A program made the position numbers and the translations under genes. From NCBI GenBank assembly GCA_964291275.2, contig OZ219799.1, forward strand, positions 2,334,914-2,398,913: a stretch of 64,000 nucleotides of DNA, given 5' to 3'. Below, one piece after another: positions 882 to 33,833 of this stretch (its first letter is position 1; the number at the start of each line of letters is the position of its first letter). Under the pieces are notes generated by a model. The model saw nothing but the letters and a program-made list of their open reading frames with translations, did no database searches and was not told the origin of the DNA. Source of the DNA: Rhodothermales bacterium. Its GTDB lineage: Bacteria > Bacteroidota > Rhodothermia > Rhodothermales > Bin80.

Positions 882-919
882 GGGAATTATATACGTGTGT
901 ACCCAAATTTCTGAAAAGT
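882..919 (+). repeat. IRL of the IS1595-type transposon (gggaattatatacgtgtgtacccaaatttctgaaaagt)
   Basis: 888-919 is the exact reverse complement of 5382-5413. 882-887 (gggaat) matches the reverse complement of 7312-7317 (atcccc) at 5 of 6 positions. Confidence 0.9.
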
Positions 920-996: not shown

Positions 997-1968
997 ATGG
1001 CAAAGCGTAGAACAGGACCAGGGAAATCGTACCGGCAAGGGCTTTCATGGGTAAAGCTCATGAAGATGTTTCCTGACGACGCAACTGCTGAAGCATGGTT
1101 TGCAAAGCAACGCTGGGGCAATGAACCCATGTGTCCACACTGCCAATCAACGAATGTGCAAACCGGGGCAAAACATCATATGCCTTACCGCTGCCGTAAT
1201 AAGGAATGCCGTAAGCGGTTCAGTGTGCGTATTGGAACGGTTATGCAAGACTCGAAGTTGGGCTATCAAGTTTGGGCAATGGCCATTTACATACTGGATA
1301 CAGGGATCAAGGGCGTATCCAGCATGAAGTTGCACCGTGATCTGGATATTACGCAGAAGACTGCCTGGCACTTAGCTCACCGTATTCGTAAATCATGGGA
1401 TACGGAACTTGAAGAGTTTGAAGGGCCGGTCGAAGTGGATGAAACGTATGTAGGGGGCAAAGAAAAGAATAAGCACGAGAACAAGAAACTCAACGCAGGT
1501 AGGGGCCCCGTAGGTAAGACGGCCGTAGTAGGTATCAAAGACAGGGAGACACTGCAAGTCCAAGCAAGGGTCGTACAGGATACCACCGCAGATACGCTCA
1601 CAGGCTTCGTGTACAGCACTTCGAGGCAGGAGGCACAAACCTACACCGATGACGCAAAAGCGTACCAGGCGTTGAAGAGAGCTGCACACGCGACCGTTAA
1701 GCACTCCGTCAAGCAATACGTGGACGGAATGGCGCACATCAACGGCATGGAATCGTTCTGGTCGTTACTGAAGCGTGGCTACTATGGCACCTATCACAAG
1801 ATGTCGCCCGAGCATCTCCAGCGCTACGTAGATGAGTTTGTTGGACGGCACAATGTACGTCGACTGGATACCGTCGAGCAAATGGAATTGACCGCACAGG
1901 GGCTTGTAGGGAAGCAGCTCACGTACAATATGCTCACCCGGAAAGTTGGCAAAACAGCAAGGACATGA
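997..1968 (+). CDS. IS1595-family (ISXO2-like) DDE transposase with N-terminal zinc ribbon
   Basis: Motifs CPHCQS...YRCRNKECRKRFSV (zinc ribbon) and VEVDETYVGGKEKNKH, GKTAVVGIKDR, typical of IS1595 transposases. The ATG at 997 is preferred over the TTG at 970. Confidence 0.85.
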   Translation: MAKRRTGPGKSYRQGLSWVKLMKMFPDDATAEAWFAKQRWGNEPMCPHCQSTNVQTGAKHHMPYRCRNKECRKRFSVRIGTVMQDSKLGYQVWAMAIYILDTGIKGVSSMKLHRDLDITQKTAWHLAHRIRKSWDTELEEFEGPVEVDETYVGGKEKNKHENKKLNAGRGPVGKTAVVGIKDRETLQVQARVVQDTTADTLTGFVYSTSRQEAQTYTDDAKAYQALKRAAHATVKHSVKQYVDGMAHINGMESFWSLLKRGYYGTYHKMSPEHLQRYVDEFVGRHNVRRLDTVEQMELTAQGLVGKQLTYNMLTRKVGKTART

Positions 1969-2011
1969 GTTATCACCAGATTGCACGCAAAGAACTCATA
2001 GCTTAAGCAGT

Positions 2012-3016
2012 ATGTCCTATAATCGCAATTTACACAAAGCAAAGGCATCTGCAAATGATGAGTTTTACACGCAACTGGAGGACATTGAAAACGAACTGCG
2101 ACACTACAAATCACACTTCAAGGACAAGGTGGTCTATTGCAACTGCGATGATCCACGGGTGAGCAACTTCTTCAAGTATTTCTCTTCTAATTTTGAGTTC
2201 TTGGGTCTCAGCAAGCTGATTACCACCTGCTACAAGAATCAGCAGTCAGATTTATTTTCGCAGCATGATTCCGAGCGGGCAATCAGCTTGGAGTACACTG
2301 GTGATAAAGATGGGGACATGGTGGTCAGTCGTGAGGAAATTGCGGTGACGCACCTGCGGGGCAATGGATGCTTCAAAAGCCCAGAATGTATTGAGCTTCT
2401 GAAGCAGGCAGATATTGTCTGCACGAATCCTCCATTTTCGCGATTCAAAGAGTATGTCGCGAAACTAATGGAGTATGAGAAGAAAATCTTAATTATTGGA
2501 AACATGAACGCGGTCACCTATAAGGAGATATTCCCGCTCATCAAAAATGACAAGCTATGGTATGGACCAAGCATATCAAGTGGTGACAGAGAATTTGGAG
2601 TCCCTGACCATTATCCCCTAACGGCGGCATCCTCTCGGGTTGACGACCAAGGCAGGAAGTACGTTCGTGTAAAGGGAGTGCGTTGGTTCACGAACCTGGA
2701 TCACAGAAAACGCCATGAGGAGTTATTTCTGTACAAAGAGTACTCCCCTGAGGAATATCCGAAATATGATAATTACGACGCGATTGAGGTGGGCAGGACG
2801 AAGAATATTCCAGGAGACTGGCTTGGTGTAATGGGCGTTCCAATCACATTCCTAGATAAGTACAATCCAGATCAGTTTGAGATACTGGGAGCAACGGAAA
2901 GTGAGGGTAAAGGCTTTTCATGTGGCCTTTGGAATCCTCAAAGTAGAGTTGCACAAGCAGTTGTCAATGGACGGAGGGTTTACAAACGGCTCTTTATCCG
3001 TAACAAACAGCTCTGA
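2012..3016 (+). CDS. N6-adenine DNA methyltransferase, EcoRI-methylase-like family (passenger gene)
   Basis: N-terminal DEFYT motif and CTNPPFS (NPPF catalytic motif IV). The ATG at 2012 avoids overlap with the transposase. Its stop is 3 nt before the next ATG. Confidence 0.7.
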   Translation: MSYNRNLHKAKASANDEFYTQLEDIENELRHYKSHFKDKVVYCNCDDPRVSNFFKYFSSNFEFLGLSKLITTCYKNQQSDLFSQHDSERAISLEYTGDKDGDMVVSREEIAVTHLRGNGCFKSPECIELLKQADIVCTNPPFSRFKEYVAKLMEYEKKILIIGNMNAVTYKEIFPLIKNDKLWYGPSISSGDREFGVPDHYPLTAASSRVDDQGRKYVRVKGVRWFTNLDHRKRHEELFLYKEYSPEEYPKYDNYDAIEVGRTKNIPGDWLGVMGVPITFLDKYNPDQFEILGATESEGKGFSCGLWNPQSRVAQAVVNGRRVYKRLFIRNKQL

Positions 3017-3019
3017 TCG

Positions 3020-4171
3020 ATGAAGATTAAACCCGTGGAAATCACCGTTCGCCAGCTTGTGAAAGGCTACGCTGATGATGGAGAGGGCGGTGTGACTGGA
3101 TATAGCGGCCGGCTTGATATCCGCCCCCCATACCAGAGGGAATTCATCTACAATGCTAAGCAGAGGGATGCGGTAGTTGATACGATCTCAAAAGGTTACC
3201 CCCTGAATGTCATGTATTGGTCCGTGCGGGCTGATGGAAGATTCGAGATTATTGATGGACAGCAGCGCACCATTTCGATTGCCCGATATGTGAAGGGAGA
3301 TTTCTCGGTAGGGGATCTCTTTGACTGGAGGGACAAACGCCAATTCCATCGTCTCCAAATAGATGAGCGGGAGAAGATTTTAGACTACAAGCTACATATA
3401 TATCAATGTACTGGAACTAATAGTGATCGTTTGAAGTGGTTCGAGAGGATCAATATAGCTGGCGTGAAGCTGACACAGCAGGAGATTCGGAACGCGGTCT
3501 ATTATGCTCCATGGTTGGAAGAAGCGAAGCGAATATTCAGCAGGAAAGGCTGTCCTGCTTCTGATGTTGGTAAAGGCTATATCAAAGGTAGAGCAGACCG
3601 GCAGGAATACTTGGAACGCGCTATTCAGTGGATTAACCAAGGAGATGTAGTTGGCTATATGAATCGAAAGGAGGGGACGGAAAATGCCCCCAACGGAAAG
3701 AGACTTTGGGATCACTTCGTGTCCGTGATCAACTGGGTAAACGCAACATTCACGGAATATCGCGAAGAGATGGAAGGCGTGGATTGGGGTGATCTTTATC
3801 TCAAATTCAAGGATGCGTCCTTGGAACTTGTTGAGATAGAGGGAAAGATAGCAGAGTTAATGAAATGTGACGAAGTCACGAAAAAGGGAGGTATCTATCC
3901 ATTCGTACTAACAGGTGACAAGAAACATCTGAGTGTCCGTAATTTCAAAAAAAACGACCAGCGTGAGGCTTACGAAGAGCAAAAAGGGATTTGTCCAGAT
4001 TGTGGAGACAAATTCAAAGAAAGAGACATGGATGCGGACCATAAAATCCCTTGGGTCAACGGCGGCCCCACCATTCTAAGCAACTGCCAAATGATGTGTA
4101 GAACCTGTCATAAAGAAAAAACCGCAAGACAGTTACGAGGGTTCTGGATATCATCAGGAAAATCAGAATAG
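3020..4171 (+). CDS. DUF262 (ParB-like/GmrSD N-terminal) domain fused to a C-terminal HNH endonuclease
   Basis: IIDGQQRTISI (the DGQQR hallmark of DUF262). The C-terminus reads DADHKIPWVNGGPTILSNCQMMCRTCHKEKT (HNH). It is translationally coupled to the methyltransferase. Confidence 0.75.
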   Translation: MKIKPVEITVRQLVKGYADDGEGGVTGYSGRLDIRPPYQREFIYNAKQRDAVVDTISKGYPLNVMYWSVRADGRFEIIDGQQRTISIARYVKGDFSVGDLFDWRDKRQFHRLQIDEREKILDYKLHIYQCTGTNSDRLKWFERINIAGVKLTQQEIRNAVYYAPWLEEAKRIFSRKGCPASDVGKGYIKGRADRQEYLERAIQWINQGDVVGYMNRKEGTENAPNGKRLWDHFVSVINWVNATFTEYREEMEGVDWGDLYLKFKDASLELVEIEGKIAELMKCDEVTKKGGIYPFVLTGDKKHLSVRNFKKNDQREAYEEQKGICPDCGDKFKERDMDADHKIPWVNGGPTILSNCQMMCRTCHKEKTARQLRGFWISSGKSE

Positions 4172-4230
4172 AATCGGTTTCAAAAATCTTGGGTACTATC
4201 GTATACAAATTCCTACTTCCCTGTCATTGA

Positions 4231-5166
4231 ATGACAATTTCGATAACAACACAAGCATCTGAGATACCAGAGAATCTGCCTCCGTCAGACTTTGGATTTT
4301 ATATAGATTATGACCAAAGGGATAGAGCAGCCAAACATATTTTTGAGGCAACCTATAGATTCATTGAGGCTTGTGAAGCATCCAGTCAAGCTCTTCTGGG
4401 ATCCGCCGGGGTATCTATTGAGCCAGTTATTGTGTTGGAAAACATCACAACGGGGTCAATTAAAACATGGTTCAAGATATTTTGGCAAGAGGAAGGAGAG
4501 GAAGCAGCCAAAAGTGGAAGCCTAAAGAGATTCCTTGTCACACTTTCCGTTGAGGGAATCAAGAAAATTTTGAGTAATACCAATAATGTTGATGATCCGC
4601 CAGAACTAAGGAATCTTCAAAATGATCTGTTCGAGTTGGTCAATGAAGTAGACATGGACACTCTTTCGCTACGTTTTCCGATTCCTGATAAAAACCTTAT
4701 AGATGTAATTACACGATTTGAGTCTGTAAAAGAACTTCTTGGGCCTGAAGACAGGGCGGCATTGGTACTATCAGATGATACTACTATACGTCTTAATCAG
4801 TCTGTTTCCGTGAACATTGAGAAACTCAAAAAAGAGGCTACAAAGGAAACTCTGGTGAATCCTACGATCACTATGATTCTCATTGTAAGAAAACCTGATT
4901 ATCTTGCGAATAGTCAATGGTCATTTCGACATGAAAGAAGAACCATTGCTGCGACTATTGAAGACCGGAAGTGGTTGAGCGAATTTCAAGGCCGAAAGAT
5001 AGACGTTAGACCGGGAGACGCCCTCAAGTGTCAAGTCAGAATTGAGACATCATACGGGTTCGACAACGAGGTTATTTCCCAAAAGCATTGTATTGAGAAA
5101 GTAGAAGAGGTAATCGAGAATGAACAAGGAGGAACGCAGATGCCTCAGTTATTTGGAAGAGAATAA
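4231..5166 (+). CDS. Hypothetical protein, 311 aa, third passenger gene
   Basis: A long ORF co-oriented with the two genes upstream, 60 nt downstream of the nuclease. No motif I recognise. AT-rich like its neighbours. Confidence 0.55.
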   Translation: MTISITTQASEIPENLPPSDFGFYIDYDQRDRAAKHIFEATYRFIEACEASSQALLGSAGVSIEPVIVLENITTGSIKTWFKIFWQEEGEEAAKSGSLKRFLVTLSVEGIKKILSNTNNVDDPPELRNLQNDLFELVNEVDMDTLSLRFPIPDKNLIDVITRFESVKELLGPEDRAALVLSDDTTIRLNQSVSVNIEKLKKEATKETLVNPTITMILIVRKPDYLANSQWSFRHERRTIAATIEDRKWLSEFQGRKIDVRPGDALKCQVRIETSYGFDNEVISQKHCIEKVEEVIENEQGGTQMPQLFGRE

Positions 5167-5189
5167 TTTCCCAAAACCAAAATCTCACC

Positions 5190-5354
5190 ATGAAACCAAC
5201 CAAATCCACTCCCTCTACCAAGAAGTCTAATGCTCCGCGTGGACGTCCAGCCAAGGATTTGGCACACATTCAGCGGTCAATCCAGTTGGGTTCTCCCGAG
5301 GAGCTGGCGAAGAAGATTTTGAACACTCCACCTGGGAAAATCAAGTTGCGGTAG
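5190..5354 (+). CDS. Possible 54-aa basic protein with an AT-hook-like PRGRPAK motif
   Basis: ATG 5190 to TAG 5352-5354, below the ORF-track cutoff. Sequence MKPTKSTPSTKKSNAPRGRPAKDLAHIQ.... It lies just inside IRR. Support is weak. Confidence 0.25.
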   Translation: MKPTKSTPSTKKSNAPRGRPAKDLAHIQRSIQLGSPEELAKKILNTPPGKIKLR

Positions 5355-5381
5355 ACAAAAACGGTAATGAATTCAACGAGG

Positions 5382-5413
5382 ACTTTTCAGAAATTTGGGT
5401 ACACACGTATATA
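5382..5413 (-). repeat. IRR of the IS1595-type transposon (inner 32 bp); the outer 6 bp (atcccc) are displaced to 7312-7317 by the intron
   Basis: Exact reverse complement of 888-919. Confidence 0.9.
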
Positions 5414-7311
5414 GTGTGCCACGAAAATACATATGAGGTGAAGCGATGACTTAGCTGAGATGTATTGAACTGTGCAAGGGATGGGGGTCGGCCCCCCGCA
5501 ACCGCTGTACAGGCGGAGGTTGCAAACCACCCACAGCTGCGGTATTTAAGAGGTATCGTGGTGAGCGTGTAGGGAAAAGGCAGGTGTAGGAATCTGTTAG
5601 GTGAGGATCGTAGAGTCGAATGAAAATGAACCATGGATGACGTGTCGAAAAGAATTAGATGATGGTCGAAACCGGGGTCGTATATTAATCCTGGGACGAG
5701 GTTGGCGGGGACCTGTTTACTGGCCAACTGGCCTCCGGCATATACATGGCGAGAATGCGATTTGGGCCCTTGTATGGAACGTGGGAACATGTCGGAGTGA
5801 TGCGAAGGGAGCGTGTCAAGCGGGCGCCCCCCGTGAGACATTGAGTACCAAAGCACTCCACATGGGCGGATCACCTCGTAGTAGTGAGGAAGCTTCTGTA
5901 ATGGAAGTAGAGCGAAGGGGGTGAACCATGCAGCAGGACGCGAGGGAGCAACCGAGAGGGAGGACTTCAACGCAAAATGCAAAGCCGTTTCCGGTGACCA
6001 AGCGACAAGTTTGGGAGGCATGGAAGCGGGTGAAGGCGAATCAGGGCGGGGCAGGGATTGATCAACAGTCTATTGCGGATATCGAGGAGAATCTTGCGGA
6101 CAATCTCTACAAGATTTGGAATCGGATGGCATCGGGCAGTTATCATCCGAAGCCGGTGCGCCGCGTGAATATTCCGAAGTCAGACGGAGGGGTTCGTCCC
6201 TTGGGAATACCCACGGTGGCAGATCGGGTGGCACAGATGGTGGTGAAACAAGTTTTGGAGCCGGAACTGGAACGCGTGTTCCATCCGGATTCCTATGGGT
6301 ACCGACCGAACAAATCGGCTCATGCTGCGCTCCGGCAGACGCGAAGGCGGTGCTGGGAACGGGCCTGGGTACTGGACATGGATATCAAGTCCTATTTTGA
6401 CACGATAGACCATGCGCTGTTGATGAAAGCGGTCCGACGACATACGGATCAGAAGTGGGTGCTCTTGTACATAGAGCGCTGGCTGACGGCACCGGTGATT
6501 CACCCAGACGGGACGGAAGCGGCTCGGGACATTGGGACACCCCAAGGCGGGGTCATCAGTCCACTGTTGGCCAATCTGTTTTTGCACTACTCGTTTGATA
6601 AGTGGATGGAGCGGTATTACCCGCAGATTCCATTTGAGCGATATGCAGATGATATTGTGTGCCACTGCACGAGTGAGGAATAGGCGCACGAACTTTGGCA
6701 GGTGCTCAAGGGACGTTTTACGGCCTGTAACTTAAAGTTACACCCGGATAAGACCCGGATCGTATACTGCAAGAGTGCGCGCCGAGAAGGCACGTATCCG
6801 GAGATTTCCTTTGATTTCTTGGGCTACACGTTTAGACCTCGAATGACAATGAGTCGCGGGGGCAAGATCTTTCTTGGGTTCAATCCAGCGATAAGCCGAA
6901 AGGCGGCGAAAGCCATACGGGAGACCATTTACAGTTGGGGATTGGCTCGCATGAGTCCATTCTCAATGGCACACATTGCAAGCAGGATAAATGCCGTGGT
7001 GCGGGGATGGATTGCCTATTATGGCGTATTCTTCAAATCGGAACTGAAAAAGGTTTTGAGAAGCATTGACCAACACCTCATCCGATGGATGATGCGGAAG
7101 TATAAGCACTTCCGGGGACATTGGAGACGGTCGTGGCGATGGTTAACGAGAATTGCTCGTCAAAATTCCGGTATATTCGTGCATTGGGCGTTTCTTTACG
7201 GTTCACCTTTGTTCAATTCCAAACGGTTGCATGGTAAGAGCCGCGTGAGTTGAGAGGCTCACGCGCGGTTCTGTGAGAGCCCGGGGGTGAAATTCCCCCG
7301 GGCTACTTGAC
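5414..7311 (+). mobile_element. Group II intron, copy 1 (ribozyme plus RT/maturase ORF in domain IV)
   Basis: The 5' end is GUGUG. A canonical 34-nt domain V lies at 7238-7271 (AGC triad, 2-nt bulge, GAGA tetraloop). The domain VI hairpin has a bulged A and a terminal AC at 7311. The boundaries are independently confirmed because removing 5414-7311 restores the transposon IRR. Confidence 0.85.
5928..7253 (+). pseudogene. Group II intron RT/maturase (IEP) interrupted by one in-frame TAG (6681-6683)
   Basis: The two ORFs 5928-6683 and 6702-7253 share a frame. Their total length (1326 nt) equals that of the intact copy at 30427-31752. The sequence has YADD and RT motifs and an X domain (RGWIAYYG) but no En domain. 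The stop replaces the Gln codon seen in copy 2. Confidence 0.8.
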
Positions 7312-7317
7312 ATCCCC

Positions 7318-7325
7318 TTAACAAA
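7318..7325. repeat. Right copy of the 8-bp target-site duplication ttaacaaa
   Basis: Identical to 874-881 and immediately outside the IRR tip at 7312-7317. Confidence 0.8.
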
Positions 7326-28358: not shown

Positions 28359-28522
28359 ATGGATAAGTTGAAGATGCACACACCTGATCTGAGTCAGGAA
28401 AATATCCTGAAGATTCGTAGTGCCTTCCCCAGCTGCGTAACCGAGGTGTTCAACGAAGCGAGAGGAGAATTACGCCTAGCGGTGGACTTTGATCTGCTTC
28501 GCCAAAAATTGAGTAATCATAT
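28359..28522 (+). pseudogene. mod: Type III R-M methyltransferase (Mod), N-terminal 54 codons, cut off by an IS insertion
   Basis: MDKLKMHTPDLSQENILKIRSAFPSCVTEVFNEARGELRLAVDFDLLRQKLSNH is the conserved N-terminus of Type III Mod proteins. The reading frame resumes in phase at 32022 (IIEGPQERYRLDWPGKRQ). Confidence 0.8.
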
Positions 28523-28778
28523 GAGCTAGTTGCAAAACCCATTTTGTTGCAACTGGTGAATCGGCCAATTCGGGACATAAATGGGTCTGATTTTCTTGGA
28601 ATACGTGAATGATTGGCCTGTGTTCACCGCTTTCTTCGAAGCTGTGGGTGATTGACCTTCAACGAGGTGTTAACTTGGAGAATTTTGTCCACGATCCGTG
28701 CGGACTCTACGCATCGATCCCACGGCTTCTGTATTCCAGAACCCCCCAATTCTGTACGCGACCACTCGACGATCCGGT

Positions 28779-29909
28779 TTAGTGGACCATCCGCAGCAGT
28801 TGATCCACCGTGAGCACAACAATTCCAAACATCAGGTGACACATCACTTTGCTGTGCCCACGCACCCGTACATGGCGTCCACCAAACTCATCTTTGAGTC
28901 GTCCAAAGACCCGCTCCACGGTCGAACGTTCCTTGTAGCGCGCCCGCTCAGGTGGAATAAACCCGGCACTGCGCTGTGCCTTCTGCTCACGACGGTGCGC
29001 CGCCTTTCGATTACGCGGATTCGTGTCAATGATCGGCACATGTCCCGCTGCCGTACTGTGTGCGTGAATCTCCTTCGCGTCATACGCACTATCCATGAGA
29101 TCATAGCAGTTGTCCACCCGCTCACCCGTCATGGTCGCCAATGGAATGGCCGCTTGGCTATCGTGCAGGGACGCGGAAGATAGCATACAGCTGATCGGAA
29201 TCCCGCCGTCTGCTGCATCTATATGTAGCTTATATCCCGTCCAGGATTGCGTATGCCCTTTCGCATTTCGCTTGCTCCCCACCGTGCACGCCTTGGGCAA
29301 ATCCGCCAACATCTCCGCTTTGTTCATGGTACGCTGGCGCTCCAAACGCGTGGGGACCTTTGGACGTTCCTCCCCCTTCCGTGGACGCCCACGCTTGCGT
29401 TTCACCGGTTCCGGCGCCTTTTTCTTCGGCACCGGCTTCTCTCTTGCCTCAATCGCCGTCGAATCCCGCGAAATATGGCCCACCAACGAATCCGCGTAGC
29501 TCTCCTGAATCAAGACTTCGTGGATCCGTGTCGGTAACTCGGACTCCGCAAACTCCTTGAACGCACGGGAAAATGTGGACGCACTGGGCACATCCCGCTG
29601 CCGCGACCAACCACACATCGACCGAAGCAATGGGTCCGAAAGTAGGCGCTCTCGCAATCCGGCAGTCGTCGGAATATTCAAGACCATCTTGGCCAAAAAC
29701 GACCGTGCAAGCGAAACCCGAGACGCCAGCGGGCGCCCCGGCGTACGGAACGAGGTGCGGGACAGAAAATCCTCTACACACGCCATCTCGAATACCAACA
29801 ACAACTTCTGGTACCGTTTGGGCAACGAACCAAATTCCTCCTCCACCCAAGGAAACAATTCTCGTTGGCAGGCAATATAAAAACCTCGTGTTTTCTTCCT
29901 AAGGGACAT
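28779..29909 (-). CDS. DDE transposase, IS4/IS5 superfamily (DDE_Tnp_1 with DUF772-like N-terminus)
   Basis: The C-terminal YKERSTVERVFGRLKDEFG matches the Y-2-R-3-E-6-K signature. There is a basic KRKRGRPRKGE linker. Start taken at ATG 29909 (MSLRKK...), because the 8 upstream codons of the ORF run into the intron's 5' end. Confidence 0.8.
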   Translation of the reverse strand: MSLRKKTRGFYIACQRELFPWVEEEFGSLPKRYQKLLLVFEMACVEDFLSRTSFRTPGRPLASRVSLARSFLAKMVLNIPTTAGLRERLLSDPLLRSMCGWSRQRDVPSASTFSRAFKEFAESELPTRIHEVLIQESYADSLVGHISRDSTAIEAREKPVPKKKAPEPVKRKRGRPRKGEERPKVPTRLERQRTMNKAEMLADLPKACTVGSKRNAKGHTQSWTGYKLHIDAADGGIPISCMLSSASLHDSQAAIPLATMTGERVDNCYDLMDSAYDAKEIHAHSTAAGHVPIIDTNPRNRKAAHRREQKAQRSAGFIPPERARYKERSTVERVFGRLKDEFGGRHVRVRGHSKVMCHLMFGIVVLTVDQLLRMVH

Positions 29910-29915
29910 GGGAGA

Positions 29916-31810
29916 GTGTGCCACGAAGTACACGGAGGTGAGTCAATGACATAGCCGAAATGTACGAACTGTATAAGGGATGGGGGACGGCCCCCCGCAA
30001 TCGCCGTGCAGGCGGAGGTTGCAAACCGCCCACAGCTGCTGCACTAAAGAGGTGTGGTGGTGAGCGTGCTGGGAAAAGGCAGGTGTAGGAACCTGTCAGG
30101 TGAGAGTCGTAGAGTCGAACGCAAGTGAATCACGGATGACGAGTCGAAAGTCCTTAGAAGATGGTCAAAACCGGGGTATTCTCCTGATCCCGGGACGAGG
30201 TTGGCGGGGACCTGCTTACTGGCCAACCGGCCTCCGGCATAAACGTGGCGAGAATGCGACTTGGGCCCTTATACGGAACGTGGGAACGTGTCGGAGTGAT
30301 GAGAAGGGAGCGTGGCAAGCAGGCAGTACCTGTAAGCCATTGAGTACCAAGGCACTCCACACGGGCGGATCACCTCGTAGTAGTGATGAGACTCCTGTAA
30401 CGGGAGAGGAGCGAAGGGGGTGAACCATGCAGCAGGACGCGAGGAAGCAACCGAAAGGGAGGACTTCAACGCAAAACGCAAAGCCGTTTCCAGTGACCAA
30501 GCGACAAGTTTGGGAGGCGTGGAAGCGTGTAAAGGCGAACCAAGGCGGGGCGGGGATCGATGCGCAGTCCATCGCAGATTTCGAGGCCAAGCTTGCGGAT
30601 AATCTCTACAAGCTCTGGAATCGAATGGCATCGGGCAGTTATCATCCACAGCCGGTGCGACGGGTAAATATTCCGAAGTCGGACGGAGGCGTCCGGCCCT
30701 TGGGAATCCCAACCGTTGCGGATCGGGTGGCACAGATGGTGGTGAAGCAGGTTTTGGAGCCGGAACTGGAACGAGAGTTCCATCCCGATTCCTATGGATA
30801 CCGACCGAACAAATCGGCCCATGACGCACTCCGGCAGACGCGAACGCGATGCTGGAAGCGGGCCTGGGTACTGGACATGGATATCAAATCTTATTTTGAT
30901 ACGATAGACCATGCTCTGTTGATGAAAGCGGTCCGGCTACACACGGATCAGAAGTGGGTGCTCTTATATATAGAGCGTTGGCTGACGGCACCGGTGATTC
31001 ATCCAGACGGGACGGAAGAGGCTCGGGATGTTGGGACCCCGCAGGGCGGGGTAATCAGTCCGCTGCTGGCCAATCTGTTTCTGCATTACGCGTTTGATAA
31101 ATGGATGGAACGGAGGTATTCGCACATTCCATTTGAGCGGTATGCAGACGACATCGTATGCCATTGCACGACAAAGAAGCAAGCGCGCTACCTCTGGAAG
31201 GTGCTGAGGGAACGCTTTAAGGCTTGCAACTTAACCTTGCACCCAGTGAAAACCAAGATTGTATACTGCAAGCAGGCATACTTTCGGGGTTCATTTCCAA
31301 ACACTTCGTTCGATTTTCTGGGGTATACGTTTCGACCGCGGAAGACACGGAGTCGGAGGGGGAGGAATTTTCTTGGGTTCAATCCGGCGATAAGTCGGAA
31401 GGCGATGAAGGCCGTACAAGAGACGATCCATGGTTGGAGGTTGGCTCGAATGAGTCCACACCCGATTACGTACATAGCGGGCAAGATCAATGCCACGGTA
31501 CGTGGATGGATTGATTATTACGGTGCGTTCTTTAAATCAGCATTAAGGCGGCCATTGGAAGGCATTGACCGTCACCTAACACGGTGGCTAATGCGGAAAT
31601 ATAAACGTTTCCGTGGTCGGTGGCTTCGGGCGTTTACGTGGTTAATAGAGCGTGCTCGTCGGGATTCGGGATTGTTCGTGCACTGGGAGTTTCTTCATGG
31701 TTCACCTTTATTCAATTCCGAACGGCTGCATGGTAGGAGCCGTGTGAGTTGAGAGGCTCACGCACGGTTCTGTGAGGGCCGGGGGGTGAGATTCCCCCCG
31801 GCTACTTGAC
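29916..31810 (+). mobile_element. Group II intron, copy 2 (intact IEP), nested in the IS and antisense to its transposase
   Basis: Collinear with copy 1 along its whole length but clearly diverged. It has the same GUGUG 5' end, domain V at 31737-31770 and a 3' end ...ggctacttgac at 31810. Confidence 0.85.
30427..31752 (+). CDS. Group II intron-encoded reverse transcriptase/maturase (no endonuclease domain)
   Basis: 441 aa with RT blocks ([28 protein letters not shown]) and maturase X domain (RGWIDYYG). The stop codon lies inside domain V. Confidence 0.9.
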   Translation: MQQDARKQPKGRTSTQNAKPFPVTKRQVWEAWKRVKANQGGAGIDAQSIADFEAKLADNLYKLWNRMASGSYHPQPVRRVNIPKSDGGVRPLGIPTVADRVAQMVVKQVLEPELEREFHPDSYGYRPNKSAHDALRQTRTRCWKRAWVLDMDIKSYFDTIDHALLMKAVRLHTDQKWVLLYIERWLTAPVIHPDGTEEARDVGTPQGGVISPLLANLFLHYAFDKWMERRYSHIPFERYADDIVCHCTTKKQARYLWKVLRERFKACNLTLHPVKTKIVYCKQAYFRGSFPNTSFDFLGYTFRPRKTRSRRGRNFLGFNPAISRKAMKAVQETIHGWRLARMSPHPITYIAGKINATVRGWIDYYGAFFKSALRRPLEGIDRHLTRWLMRKYKRFRGRWLRAFTWLIERARRDSGLFVHWEFLHGSPLFNSERLHGRSRVS

Positions 31811-32021
31811 CTCCGGTTTTCGTGGAAAATTTCGACACTGATTGATACGAAATCCGGGGGACTCCGGTCCCTTTTTTAGGCCTATCGAGGGATGTTCCTA
31901 TGCTCGGGGCGGATACAAATCCCAATCACAATCGCCTCCTCTACCCGGAGGCACCAACCAGAAACCATGACCTCAAAATTCCAAAAAATCCCCCGATTTG
32001 GGAGTTTTGCAACTGGCTCAT

Positions 32022-33833
32022 ATTATTGAGGGGCCGCAGGAACGCTACAGACTTGACTGGCCAGGCAAGCGTCAAGCACTCTTGATTGCAAATTCGCCGG
32101 TCAACAAGGCACTGCGACCCGTAAGGAGTGACAGCCCTCACTTTGATACAACCAGAAACCTATTTATCGAAGGTGATAACCTTGAGGCGCTAAAACTCAT
32201 TCAAGAGATCTATCTCAGACAGATCAAGCTAATCTATATTGACCCACCGTACAATACGGGCAAGGATTTTATCTACCGAGATAAATTTGAATCAGAACAG
32301 ATTCCCCACGAAATAGCATCTGGTGAGCGAACAGAGGAAGGGAGACGTCTTGTTACTAATCCCGAAAGAAATGGGCGATTTCATTCAAATTGGCTTACGA
32401 TGATTGCTCCGCGACTGCGGTTGGCCAAGAACTTGCTGACTAGAGATGGTGCGATCTTTGTATCCTGTGATGAGGGAGAACAGCCCCGCCTGCGCATGGT
32501 CATGGATGAAATCTTTGGTCAATCCAATTTCGTTGCCGATATGGTGTGGGCGGCCGGTCGCAAGAATGATTCGCGATTCGTATCCGTCTCGCATGAGTAT
32601 ATCGTTTGTTACGCCCGTGACTCTGCATATCTCAGCGAAAACAAAGTAATCTGGCGCCAGCGAAAGAAAGGGTTGGAAGACATTTATTCCCAGTATTATC
32701 GCTTGAAGCGCCAACACGGAAATGATTTTGAGGCAATCACGCAGGGTCTTAAGAAGTGGTATTCAGGCCTCGCTGATAGTAATCCCGCGAAAAAGCATAA
32801 GCATTATTCCCACGTTGACGCTCGGGGAATCTACTTTCCTGATAATATCTCATGGCCTGGTGGTGGCGGACCAAAATATGAGGTGCTTCATCCAGAGACC
32901 CAAAAGCCAGTAAAAATCCCATCTAGCGGTTGGCGCTTCAGTAATCCGAAGCTAATGCAGGAACGGATTAACGATGATCGCGTCCACTTTGGCGAGGATG
33001 AGAACTCAGTTCCTTGCATTAAACGTTACTTGAAAGACAATGAGCGCCAAGTACCGTACAGCGTTTTTTACCAAGATGGACGTGCTGCATCTAAACGTCT
33101 GCGGGCCCTCATGGATGGAAAATTTTTTGATTACCCCAAGGACGAATTGATTCTCCAGGAAATCATTGAAATGGTAACCAAGGATTCGGATATTATACTC
33201 GACTTCTTTGCAGGATCATCCACCACCGCACATTCCGTGATGCTTCAGAATGCCGCTGATGGAGGAAATCGCAAGTTCATCATGGTGCAATTGGATGAAG
33301 CGGTAAACGAGAATTCTGAGGCTTTCAATGCCGGTTTCAAGACTATACCTGAAGTTAGCCGAGAGCGAATCCGCCGAGCAGGACAGAAAATATTAGAGGA
33401 GGATTATCACACTGACTGGAATCAAGATGTGGGCTTTCGATCGCTTAAGGTGGATTCATCAAACATGAAGGATGTTTATTACCGCCCCGACGATGTAAAA
33501 CAATCTCAACTTTGGGAGATGGTGGACAGCGTTAAAGATGACCGGACGCCTGAGGATCTGCTGTTCCAAGTGCTGGTTGACTGGGGCATAGACTTAACAC
33601 TGCCGATTCGACAAGAGATTGTCCATACAAAAACCGTTTTCTTTGTTAACGAAAAGGAACTGGTGGCATGTTTCGACCAAGGCGTGACCGAGGAAATAGT
33701 GAGGGAATTAGCAAAACTTACTCCCTTTCGTGTCGTCTTCCGCGATAACAGCTTCGTCTCGGATGCAGTAAAGATCAACACACAGCAAATATTTCGCCAA
33801 CTTTCTCCTTCGACAGACTTGAAATCAATCTAA
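32022..33833 (+). pseudogene. mod: Type III R-M methyltransferase (Mod), C-terminal about 600 codons
   Basis: IIEGPQERYRLDWPGKRQ continues the 28359-28522 fragment. Motif IV is IDPPYNTG and motif I is DFFAGSSTT. An in-frame TTG at 31998 inside the IS end could allow an N-terminally altered product. Confidence 0.8.

Follow-up and report, generated by a model that had tools for sequence, protein, structure and literature searches.

The window, meaning the whole 64-kb stretch of Rhodothermales DNA that we analysed, contains what its sequence identifies as an IS1595-family transposon carrying a type II restriction-modification system. The transposase gene (997 to 1968, + strand; ATG at 997, reading frame open from 970) encodes a protein that matches the Pfam domains DDE_Tnp_IS1595 (PF12762, 2.9e-40) and Zn_ribbon_IS1595 (PF12760), as well as the NCBIfam model transpos_IS1595 (NF033547) at 174 bits. 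Passenger genes follow on the same strand: an EcoRI-like type II adenine methyltransferase (1946 to 3016; Pfam EcoRI_methylase, 2.4e-139; PADLOC MTase_II), a GmrSD_N (DUF262) plus HNH nuclease that matches a type II restriction enzyme model (3020 to 4171; PADLOC REase_II, 3.8e-115), and an ORF of the LAPAL-motif family that is PDC-S42-like (4231 to 5166). Between the nuclease gene and this last ORF is a degenerate sequence resembling the right inverted repeat (4178 to 4214, + strand; 70% complementary to 881-917), which probably marks where a shorter, earlier element once ended on the right.

The left inverted repeat (IRL; 882 to 919, + strand) reads GGGAAT followed by TATATACGTGTGTACCCAAATTTCTGAAAAGT, and an inverted-repeat search covers its positions 888-919. 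These are complementary at 32/32 positions (100%) to 5382-5413 (+ strand), the inner 32 bp of the right inverted repeat (IRR), which form the 5′ exon of a group II intron. The outer 6-bp tip of IRR, ATCCCC (7312 to 7317, + strand), lies on the far side of the intron as the start of the 3′ exon; it is the reverse complement of GGGGAT and agrees with the start of IRL, GGGAAT (882-887), at 5/6 positions. With the intron removed, IRR matches IRL (882-919) at 37/38 positions, giving inverted repeats of 38 bp. The transposon-intron unit as a whole is flanked by the 8-bp target-site duplication TTAACAAA, at 874 to 881 on the left and 7318 to 7325 on the right, identical at 8/8 positions; a match of this length at a fixed position has a chance probability of about 1.5e-5. 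A target duplication of 8 bp is typical of the IS1595 family in ISfinder, and the termini presumably fit the ISNwi1 subgroup of that database (ggnnatTAT).

The intron, which we call copy 1, spans 1898 nt (5414 to 7311, + strand). Its 5′ end, GUGUG, fits the group II consensus GUGYG, and its 3′ end falls in domain VI (...CUACUUGAC). Rfam models detected the core of domain I at 5483 to 5602 (RF01999, group-II-D1D4-2; 103 bits against a gathering score of 36) and domains V and VI at 7236 to 7311 (RF00029; 55.9 bits, gathering score 40), both on the + strand. Domain V is 34 nt long (7238-7271) and has the AGC triad, and the branch-point A would be position 7305. A second intron, copy 2 (29916 to 31810, + strand; 1895 nt), gave equivalent Rfam matches at 29982-30101 and 31735-31810 and carries an intact gene for a 441-aa intron-encoded protein (IEP) at 30427-31752. 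Copy 1 and copy 2 can be aligned from GTGTGCC (5414 / 29916) to CTACTTGAC (7311 / 31810) with 82.3% identity by BLASTN, and similarity vanishes beyond both points. Minimum free energy folding of domains I to III as a single sequence was uninformative (z = -1.5), and we used comparative analysis instead. At the level of sequence, the alignment, the 32/32 arms, the 5/6 tip and the 8/8 duplication confirm the original prediction that a group II intron with the limits 5414-7311 lies inside IRR, 6 bp from its tip, and splits the repeat into 32 bp and 6 bp; every coordinate given in that prediction was correct.

Copy 1 contains a reverse transcriptase/maturase gene (5928 to 7253, + strand) that has no endonuclease domain. 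One in-frame TAG interrupts it (6681-6683), at a codon that specifies Gln in the intact homologues of copy 2 and the related intron L001; this stop codon was absent from the earlier description of the locus. If read-through transcripts are to splice, the maturase would have to be supplied in trans. The IEP of copy 1 is 80% identical to that of copy 2, and a domain scan of the latter found RVT_1 and GIIM only, with no HNH/En match and about 40 residues after domain X; it scored 438 bits against TIGR04416. Compared with the IEP of RmInt1, taken at its published coordinates (pSymB 675027-676910, NC_003078), the IEP of the window is 52% identical over 410-419 aa (E = 1e-157 to 1e-164). The C-terminal tail of class D proteins has been described as LX3AX3PXLF[V/A]HW (PMC4615759). 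Copy 2 has L-IER-A-RRD-S-G-LFVHW and copy 1 has L-TRI-A-RQN-S-G-IFVHW, so that both deviate by P to S and copy 1 also by L to I, while the other fixed positions match; the canonical P is present in the slightly more distant relatives P0015 and P0018-P0020. Taken together, the lack of an endonuclease domain, the 52% identity to the RmInt1 IEP and the near-canonical tail lead us to assign the intron to bacterial class D (IIB3, RmInt1-like).

Other assignments were considered and rejected. Group IIC (class C) identity is excluded by the 34-nt domain V with its AGC triad and by the covarying EBS2 described below, and the class C mode of targeting terminators or attC sites is excluded since a GC-rich hairpin is absent upstream of both insertion sites. 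A Sinorhizobium meliloti plasmid match (H1/L189, 60.7% IEP identity) was likewise rejected as RmInt1, since the intron there is a distinct one that lies within another RT gene.

Recognition of the 5′ exon by copy 1 centers on a hairpin in domain I (5672 to 5694, + strand), in which a 5-bp stem (5672-5676 / 5690-5694) with compensatory changes encloses a 13-nt loop (5677-5689). EBS1 occupies 5681-5686 of this loop (UAUAUU), and UAUAU (5681-5685) pairs with AUAUA (5409-5413), the last five nucleotides of the exon. EBS2 (AGAAUU) is at 5651 to 5656 and EBS3 is the U at 5743, both on the + strand; the matching exon elements are IBS2 (UACACA, 5400-5405), IBS1 (UAUAUA, 5408-5413) and IBS3 (A7312). 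Across 24 intron lineages, EBS1-IBS1 was paired in 94.4% of cells and the EBS2-IBS2 helix in 73.9%, with all six EBS1 pairs and all EBS2 pairs covarying, and the stem of the EBS1 hairpin was 100% paired. The mean number of pairs out of 6 was 5.69 for cognate and 2.81 for non-cognate combinations. As controls on the whole structure, sliding the partner columns lowered pairing to 30-43%, and 0/500 shuffles matched the observed covariation. The EBS3 column (5743) was the best covarying column, with 19/25 Watson-Crick pairs to exon position +1. EBS1 aligns with that of RmInt1, and intron nt 330 (EBS3) aligns with RmInt1 nt 329 (329G), the published position of EBS3 in that intron (PMC3123198). Thus the covariation landed on the same 13-nt loop that had been proposed to pair with the end of the exon.

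Two other readings of the exon contacts fail. A IIA-type δ-δ′ recognition of the 3′ exon is excluded because in both copies the base 5′ of EBS1 is unpaired with +1; the EBS3 column shows IIB-type recognition through a single nucleotide instead. As a different IBS2 for copy 1, the upstream sequence AAUUU (5392-5396) would offer 5 pairs, but its distance from IBS1 is 8 nt greater than the spacing in every other lineage.

The two copies differ in how well they fit their sites. In copy 2, EBS2 (30150-30155) and EBS1 (30180-30185) pair with IBS2 (29902-29907) and IBS1 (29910-29915) at 6/6 positions each. When we re-read the pairs, its loop sequence UCUCC (30180-30184) proved complementary to GGAGA (29911-29915), followed by wobbles G-U at -6 and U-G at -7, just as had been proposed, and with copy 1 this constitutes EBS1/IBS1 covariation. 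In copy 1, pairing is 5/6 for EBS1 (all A-U), 1/1 for EBS3 and only 2/6 for EBS2. The suggestion that each site was reached by genuine retrohoming therefore holds in part: the pairings fully support arrival by retrohoming for copy 2, and they make copy 1 a near-cognate case. EBS2 pairing is 4/6 and 5/6 at two other occupied inverted repeats, L001 and L194, and the low value in copy 1 suggests that the IR in the window is a near-cognate variant of the site usually used by the lineage. Homing of RmInt1 needs EBS2, and so an inefficient entry, or later drift of EBS2 or the IR, may apply to copy 1.

We surveyed relatives of the host element with and without an intron. In metagenomes, five intron-free IS relatives end in ...GTATATA/ATTCCC (the slash marks the insertion point), each with its own 8-bp duplication, showing that the 6-nt tip belongs to the IR. 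The terminus of IRL, GGGAATTATATAC..GTACCC, recurs in L001, L177, L166, L098 and L134, and the intron-free metagenomic elements L177, L166/L089, L098 and L134 all end in GGGAATTATATAC...GTATATAATTCCC, again with a separate 8-bp duplication each; IS1595 transposases are encoded by L177 and L166. A 17-mer scan of metagenomes gave 108 matches, mostly chance, and none of its roughly 10 true IS ends was occupied by an intron.

Occupied repeats were found in three clear cases (the window, L001 and L194) and one probable case (L190). L001 reads ...GGGTACTCATGTATATA, intron, AATCCC, with the duplication ATAGATAG; the intron there shares 91.7% identity with copy 1. L194 reads ...GACTCATGGATATA, intron, ATTCCC, and here EBS1 has changed in step to UAUAUC, giving the pairings UAUAUC/GAUAUA for EBS1 and UGAGAU/GACUCA for EBS2. 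Both L001 and L194 carry a TnpB gene between IS1595-type IRs, and the host elements of the occupied repeats share the IR sequence only. In all 3/3 clear cases the intron is in the downstream IR and in sense orientation. The commonest IR variant, ACUCAU, matches an EBS2 of the L001 type. Since related introns occupy the same IR position in L001 and L194, we take the junction of positions 6 and 7 in the IR that this IS family conserves to be a homing site of a Rhodothermales intron clade.

Our preferred explanation, which we consider very probable, is that copy 1 is a class D intron without an endonuclease that reverse-spliced into the top strand of IRR in the IS1595-family restriction-modification transposon, at an IR homing site of its clade. 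One alternative, which we regard as unlikely, is that homologous recombination or gene conversion with an intron-bearing copy of the IS brought in the occupied IRR, or that intron and IS transposed as a composite unit. It would explain the EBS2 mismatch of copy 1 if the first entry had been into a better-matched IR, and it draws on the further related introns in the genome (among them P0007, on the same 2.84-Mb contig) and on the composite look of the transposon with its degenerate internal repeat (4178-4214). However, for composite transposition the transposase would have to act on a repeat with 1.9 kb between its binding part and its tip, the 64-kb window has no second copy of its IR elsewhere, and no further copy of the composite was present in any collection searched.

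A second alternative is ectopic retrotransposition, in which the intron would have entered a chance AU-rich site that happened to be within the IR rather than homing to a cognate IR. The weak EBS1 duplex of five A-U pairs is a point against our preferred explanation, and together with the 2/6 EBS2-IBS2 match it could be read in this way, as a poorly matched IBS has been taken to suggest retrotransposition (PMC3123198); moreover, the L192 intron, 99.7% identical to the L190 copy, sits at a non-IR site. Against this, L001, L194 and probably L190, elements that have nothing but the IR in common, carry introns of the same clade at exactly this IR position, 6 nt from the tip, EBS1 and EBS2 covary with IR variants such as that of L194, and the commonest variant fits the L001-type EBS2, and we judge an ectopic origin to be quite improbable. 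Finally, the idea that the IS stops at ...GTATATA with ATCCCC outside the IR and the intron just beyond it, which has in its favor only the 5/6 agreement of ATCCCC with IRL, is refuted by the 8/8 duplication directly outside the 6-nt tip and at the other end, and by the five independent intron-free relatives that have ATTCCC and then their own 8-bp duplications.

Under homing to the IR, we propose the following history. The transposon would have come first, inserting between alcohol-dehydrogenase-like and Bax1-I-family genes and creating the duplication, and the intron would have arrived afterwards. Its ribonucleoprotein may have recognized ...GUAUAUA/A... through the five A-U pairs of EBS1-IBS1 and the U-A pair of EBS3-IBS3, with little help from EBS2. 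Given an IEP that lacks the endonuclease, nascent DNA at a replication fork presumably served as the primer for cDNA synthesis, as published work on class D introns would suggest. Both intron copies are on the + strand and the GC skew of the window is +0.046, which is compatible with a lagging-strand-template bias. Copy 1 would later have gained the CAG-to-TAG nonsense mutation and may now rely on a related protein in trans. With the cleavage tip 1.9 kb from the rest of the IR, the right end should be disabled and the transposon immobilized with its cargo, and splicing would not be expected to repair the split IR at the DNA level. RmInt1 insertion is thought to restrain the spread of its host IS (PMC5894124), and a loss of transposition here is a reasonable inference that agrees with this proposal of Toro and colleagues.

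Homing into an IR is already known for class D introns, and the present case adds an example. RmInt2 homes into both inverted repeats of ISRm17 (PMC4615759, PMC5894124). Like it, the intron described here belongs to class D, has an IEP without an endonuclease and has the terminal inverted repeat of an IS as its natural target. The introns further share a relaxed EBS2-IBS2 pairing, a spacing of two nucleotides between IBS2 and IBS1, and a U at EBS3 that permits head-to-tail tandem copies, which we found in the relatives L009, L011 and L190. In contrast to RmInt2, the hosts are Rhodothermales MAGs rather than Alphaproteobacteria, the host IS belongs to IS1595 whereas ISRm17 is of the ISNCY/ISDol1 type (PMC10194956), and all 3 clear cases are in the downstream IR and in sense orientation only.

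The likeness to RmInt1 of S. meliloti, the class D (IIB3) archetype that homes into ISRm2011-2, lies in residence inside an IS, in the full-length 52% IEP identity, and in the positions of EBS1 (nt 267-272 there, 268-273 here) and EBS3 (nt 329 there, 330 here). RmInt1 differs in that it is located within an IS630-family transposase gene and not in an IR, its IEP has 419 aa as opposed to 441 aa here, and its EBS2 requirements are strict. A further class D intron, Sr.md.I1 of S. medicae, lies in an IS66 transposase ORF, a setting probably resembled by that of the Alphaproteobacteria relatives L041-L080 described below.

The mechanism is textbook, and with RmInt2 already described as targeting IRs it should cause specialists no great surprise. 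What the locus contributes is an example, in a phylum and an IS family new to this behavior, of class D introns without an endonuclease that exploit conserved transposon ends as safe landing sites present in many copies, together with a clean natural case of an IR in which insertion has parted the cleavage tip and the binding part. Should the split IR be dead, a restriction-modification transposon has been frozen, which would support the published idea of introns restraining IS spread. We can also speculate, though we think it very unlikely, that the Rhodothermales class D clade is a dedicated parasite of a strongly conserved 23-bp IS1595-type terminus, always at the downstream end, at IR positions 6/7 and in sense, acting as a heritable lock that immobilizes elements and keeps their cargo in place; for L001 and L194, the intron would be situated at the expected 3′ end of the TnpB omega RNA, where splicing could gate a functional guide RNA. 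The EBS/IBS tables for more than 20 lineages could help to retarget class D introns. The related introns L041-L080 from Alphaproteobacteria MAGs differ from those of the window in their target, a repeated and conserved coding sequence that we take to be IS66-like and to which their EBS1 is matched (GGUGGU/ACCACC), and their IEPs are only 57-59% identical.

Rfam covariance models place two group II introns in the window, both on the plus strand. The domain I core (RF01999) was matched at 5483-5602 in copy 1 (103 bits) and at 29982-30101 in copy 2 (109 bits), and the domain V/VI module (RF00029) gave plus-strand 3′ ends at exactly 7311 and 31810. Aligned with each other (82.3% identity by BLASTN), the copies correspond from GTGTGCC (5414 and 29916) through CTACTTGAC (7311 and 31810), and the sequences beyond both limits are unrelated. 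The stretch directly 5′ of copy 1 (5382-5413) is a perfect 32-nt inverted match to 888-919. The hexamer directly 3′ of the intron is ATCCCC (7312-7317), which is complementary to GGGGAT, and the left inverted repeat (IR) starts GGGAAT (882-887). The 8-mer TTAACAAA lies directly outside both transposon ends, at 874-881 and 7318-7325. With the intron subtracted, the transposon has 38-bp terminal repeats (37 of 38 positions matching) and an 8-bp target duplication, and copy 1 sits between IR positions 6 and 7. The Rfam matches, the alignment of the copies, the 32-nt arm and the flanking 8-mer together bear out the original prediction of a group II intron inside the right repeat (IRR), 6 bp from its tip. 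Each IR also carries an outward-facing match to a sigma-70-like promoter, TTCAGA-N18-TATAAT, at 886-915 (minus strand) and 5386-5415 (plus strand); in the right repeat the -10 hexamer is cut by copy 1 after TATA and now reads TATAGT.

The IR core was used as a query in a scan of a metagenome collection, where most matches were due to chance. About ten were real IS ends, all reading GGGTAC(T/A)CA(T/C)GTATATA followed by ATTCC(C). Both ends, together with the element's own 8-bp duplication, were seen in five elements: L177 (GCTTATAT), L166 and L089 (AATTGGTT), and the MITE-sized derivatives L098 (AAATGTAA) and L134 (CAACAAAG); L177 and L166 encode IS1595 transposases. Since these intron-free relatives carry the tip inside their own duplications, the six bases do form part of the IR, as had been proposed, and ends are normally free of introns. 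Over the outermost 23 nt of the IR, the window (882-904) and L166 (6250-6272) are nearly identical, while their IS1595 transposases are only 37% identical; conservation of the termini to this degree is unusual.

The host element belongs to the IS1595 family, as its transposase has the DDE_Tnp_IS1595 domain and the family zinc ribbon and matches NCBIfam transpos_IS1595. It carries three passenger genes, encoding an EcoRI-like methyltransferase, a DUF262/HNH protein that matches a PADLOC type II restriction enzyme model, and a LAPAL-family ORF. The EcoRI-family methyltransferase and the DUF262/HNH enzyme (1946-4171; PADLOC MTase_II and REase_II) together look like a full type II restriction-modification pair. 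Just 3′ of the restriction gene, an additional degenerate stretch resembling IRR (4178-4214) suggests that the transposon grew from an older, shorter element by capture of 4215-5413. An IR-like 17-mer in IRR orientation also lies directly upstream of the transposase start (968-984).

Transposon insertion preceded the arrival of the intron, because transposon and intron lie together inside the 8-bp duplication. Following what has been published on class D introns, we infer that the intron would have reverse-spliced into DNA at a replication fork with nascent strands as primer, and that copy 1 would rely on a maturase acting in trans. The function of the right end was probably lost, because its transposase-binding part and cleavage tip are now 1.9 kb apart, and a DNA repeat cannot be restored by RNA splicing.

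With the intron protein as query, a scan of a genome collection returned 80 loci. Domain I was aligned for about 30 distinct introns, each of which was compared with its own exons. The hexamer homologous to 5681-5686 (exon-binding site 1, EBS1) tracks the last six exon bases (IBS1) in lineage after lineage. EBS1 UAUAUU faces IBS1 UAUAUA in copy 1 and L001, with UCUCCU facing GGGAGA in copy 2, GUAUGC/GCGUAU in L003, AGAUCC/GGAUCU in L009, GAAUCC/GGAUUC in L012, AGUCGU/ACGACU in introns within the YADD codons of other reverse transcriptase (RT) genes, AGUCAU/AUGACU in L030, GGUGGU/ACCACC in the L041 group and UAUAUC/GAUAUA in L194. Counted formally across 24 lineages, 94.4% of EBS1-IBS1 cells were paired, with both-sided changes in 6 of 6 pairs, and the stem closing the EBS1 hairpin was 100% paired with compensatory changes. 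Sliding the partner columns cut whole-structure pairing to 30-43%, and none of 500 shuffles reached the observed covariation score. The hexamer that follows GAAA (5651-5656) is EBS2; its partner is exon positions -14 to -9, and 73.9% of its cells were paired in the same lineages. EBS3 is the single base 5743, the top covarying column against exon position +1. Its counterpart in the alignment with RmInt1 is nt 329, which experiments defined as the EBS3 of that intron (PMC3123198). The count thus confirms the earlier placement of EBS1 in the domain I loop at 5681-5685, covarying with the exon end between copies.

The intron-encoded protein (IEP) contains RT and maturase domains only. RmInt1, a class D intron of S. 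meliloti, was taken by its published coordinates (NC_003078.1 675027-676910; PMC4496777), and its 419-aa protein is 52% identical over the full length to the IEPs of copies 1 and 2. In class D proteins the C-tail carries the motif LX3AX3PXLF[V/A]HW (PMC4615759); the window IEPs read L-x3-A-x3-S-x-[L/I]FVHW, with S in place of a proline that is kept in slightly more distant relatives. Because of this domain content, the RmInt1 identity, the C-tail motif, and EBS1 and EBS3 at nucleotides homologous to those of RmInt1, we assign the intron on sequence grounds to bacterial class D (IIB3).

The introns differ in how well they fit their sites. Copy 2 pairs at 6/6 positions for both EBS1 and EBS2, with an EBS3 mismatch (A.C), whereas copy 1 pairs at 5/6 for EBS1, all A-U, only 2/6 for EBS2, and has a paired EBS3 (U-A). 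In L001, whose intron is the sister of copy 1 (91.7% identity), EBS2 faces the commoner IR variant ACUCAU and pairs at 4/6, and in L194 it pairs at 5/6; the window IR is therefore a near-cognate form of the target that the clade usually uses. In RmInt1, EBS1-IBS1 alone is enough for excision, whereas homing also requires EBS2 and EBS3 (PMC3123198); RmInt2 tolerates EBS2 mismatches (PMC4615759).

The same IR position is occupied elsewhere. L001 comes from a Rhodothermales MAG and has an intact same-clade intron between GGGTACTCATGTATATA and AATCCC, in an element with left repeat GGGAATTATATACGTGTGTACCC and duplication ATAGATAG. Another intron in L194 lies between GACTCATGGATATA and ATTCCC, with EBS1 and EBS2 altered to match, and L190 has two head-to-tail copies in more diverged IR-like sequence. 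The IR is the sole sequence these host elements have in common with the window transposon, two of them having a TnpB gene in place of the transposase, so one IR position has been invaded repeatedly.

RmInt2, from S. meliloti GR4 and also of class D, occurs solely in the IRs of ISRm17, and its authors argued that IR use gives the intron twice as many targets, one of which is always on the lagging-strand template (PMC4615759, PMC5894124). Since ISRm17 is an ISNCY-family element (PMC10194956), the IS family and host phylum are new here, but the IR-targeting strategy is not; the window intron is a further example of known behaviour rather than a new kind of system. The same papers describe head-to-tail copies when EBS3 is U, as in the tandem copies of L009, L011 and L190, an IS66-resident relative, which the L041-L080 group resembles, and a decay path in which IEP point mutations come first and other copies provide rescue (PMC4615759, PMC5894124). 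Copy 1 fits this path, as its IEP gene is broken by a single in-frame TAG (6681-6683); the equivalent codon is CAA (Gln) in the intact copy 2, and the residue is Gln in L001. The original prediction was accurate, and its reasoning on EBS1 was correct.

The copy 1 protein is 80% identical to that of copy 2 and 88% identical to P0007, encoded on the same contig. P0013, a 407-aa database entry flagged as window-encoded, equals the copy 1 product except for Gln at the TAG codon, and may be a gene call under a TAG=Gln code or the product of a second copy. Copy 2 lies within another IS (IS5/IS1182-like, 28515-32027, candidate IRs 28515-28538 and 32004-32027), 6 nt upstream of the ATG of a minus-strand DDE_Tnp_1 transposase gene (28779-29909). 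Being antisense and between that gene and its upstream region, it cannot be spliced from the transposase mRNA. A third group II intron survives as an 85-nt remnant of its 5′ end (starting GTGTGCCACGAGATACACGG) at 47481-~47565, which is truncated inside domain I and shares ~75% identity with the first part of copy 2. Many related introns form a large subclade that homes into the YADD-coding sequence of other RT genes, producing nested introns (L010, L013, L014, L016, L021, L030, L035, L040 and L189).

Beyond the window is the loose end of most interest, TnpB genes bounded by IS1595-type repeats that have these introns at their downstream end. The TnpB genes of L001 (1081-2489) and L194 (1-960) encode OrfB_IS605 and Cas12f1-like TNB domains, are 40% identical to each other, and are bounded by IS1595-type IRs with no IS1595 transposase; L001 has an 8-bp duplication. 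Here TnpB seems to be carried as a passenger by a non-autonomous IS1595-type element. Both elements have a class D intron in the downstream IR (L001 4385-4390; L194 2861-2866), at a place where an omega RNA might be expected to end on its 3′ side. L001 also carries, some 200 nt past the 3′ end of the full intron, an isolated, extended palindromic copy of the domain VI hairpin and intron 3′ end (4581-4626), ending in CAAGTAGCCCGGGGGTGAAATTCCCCCAGGCTACTTGAC and followed by AGCCCC.
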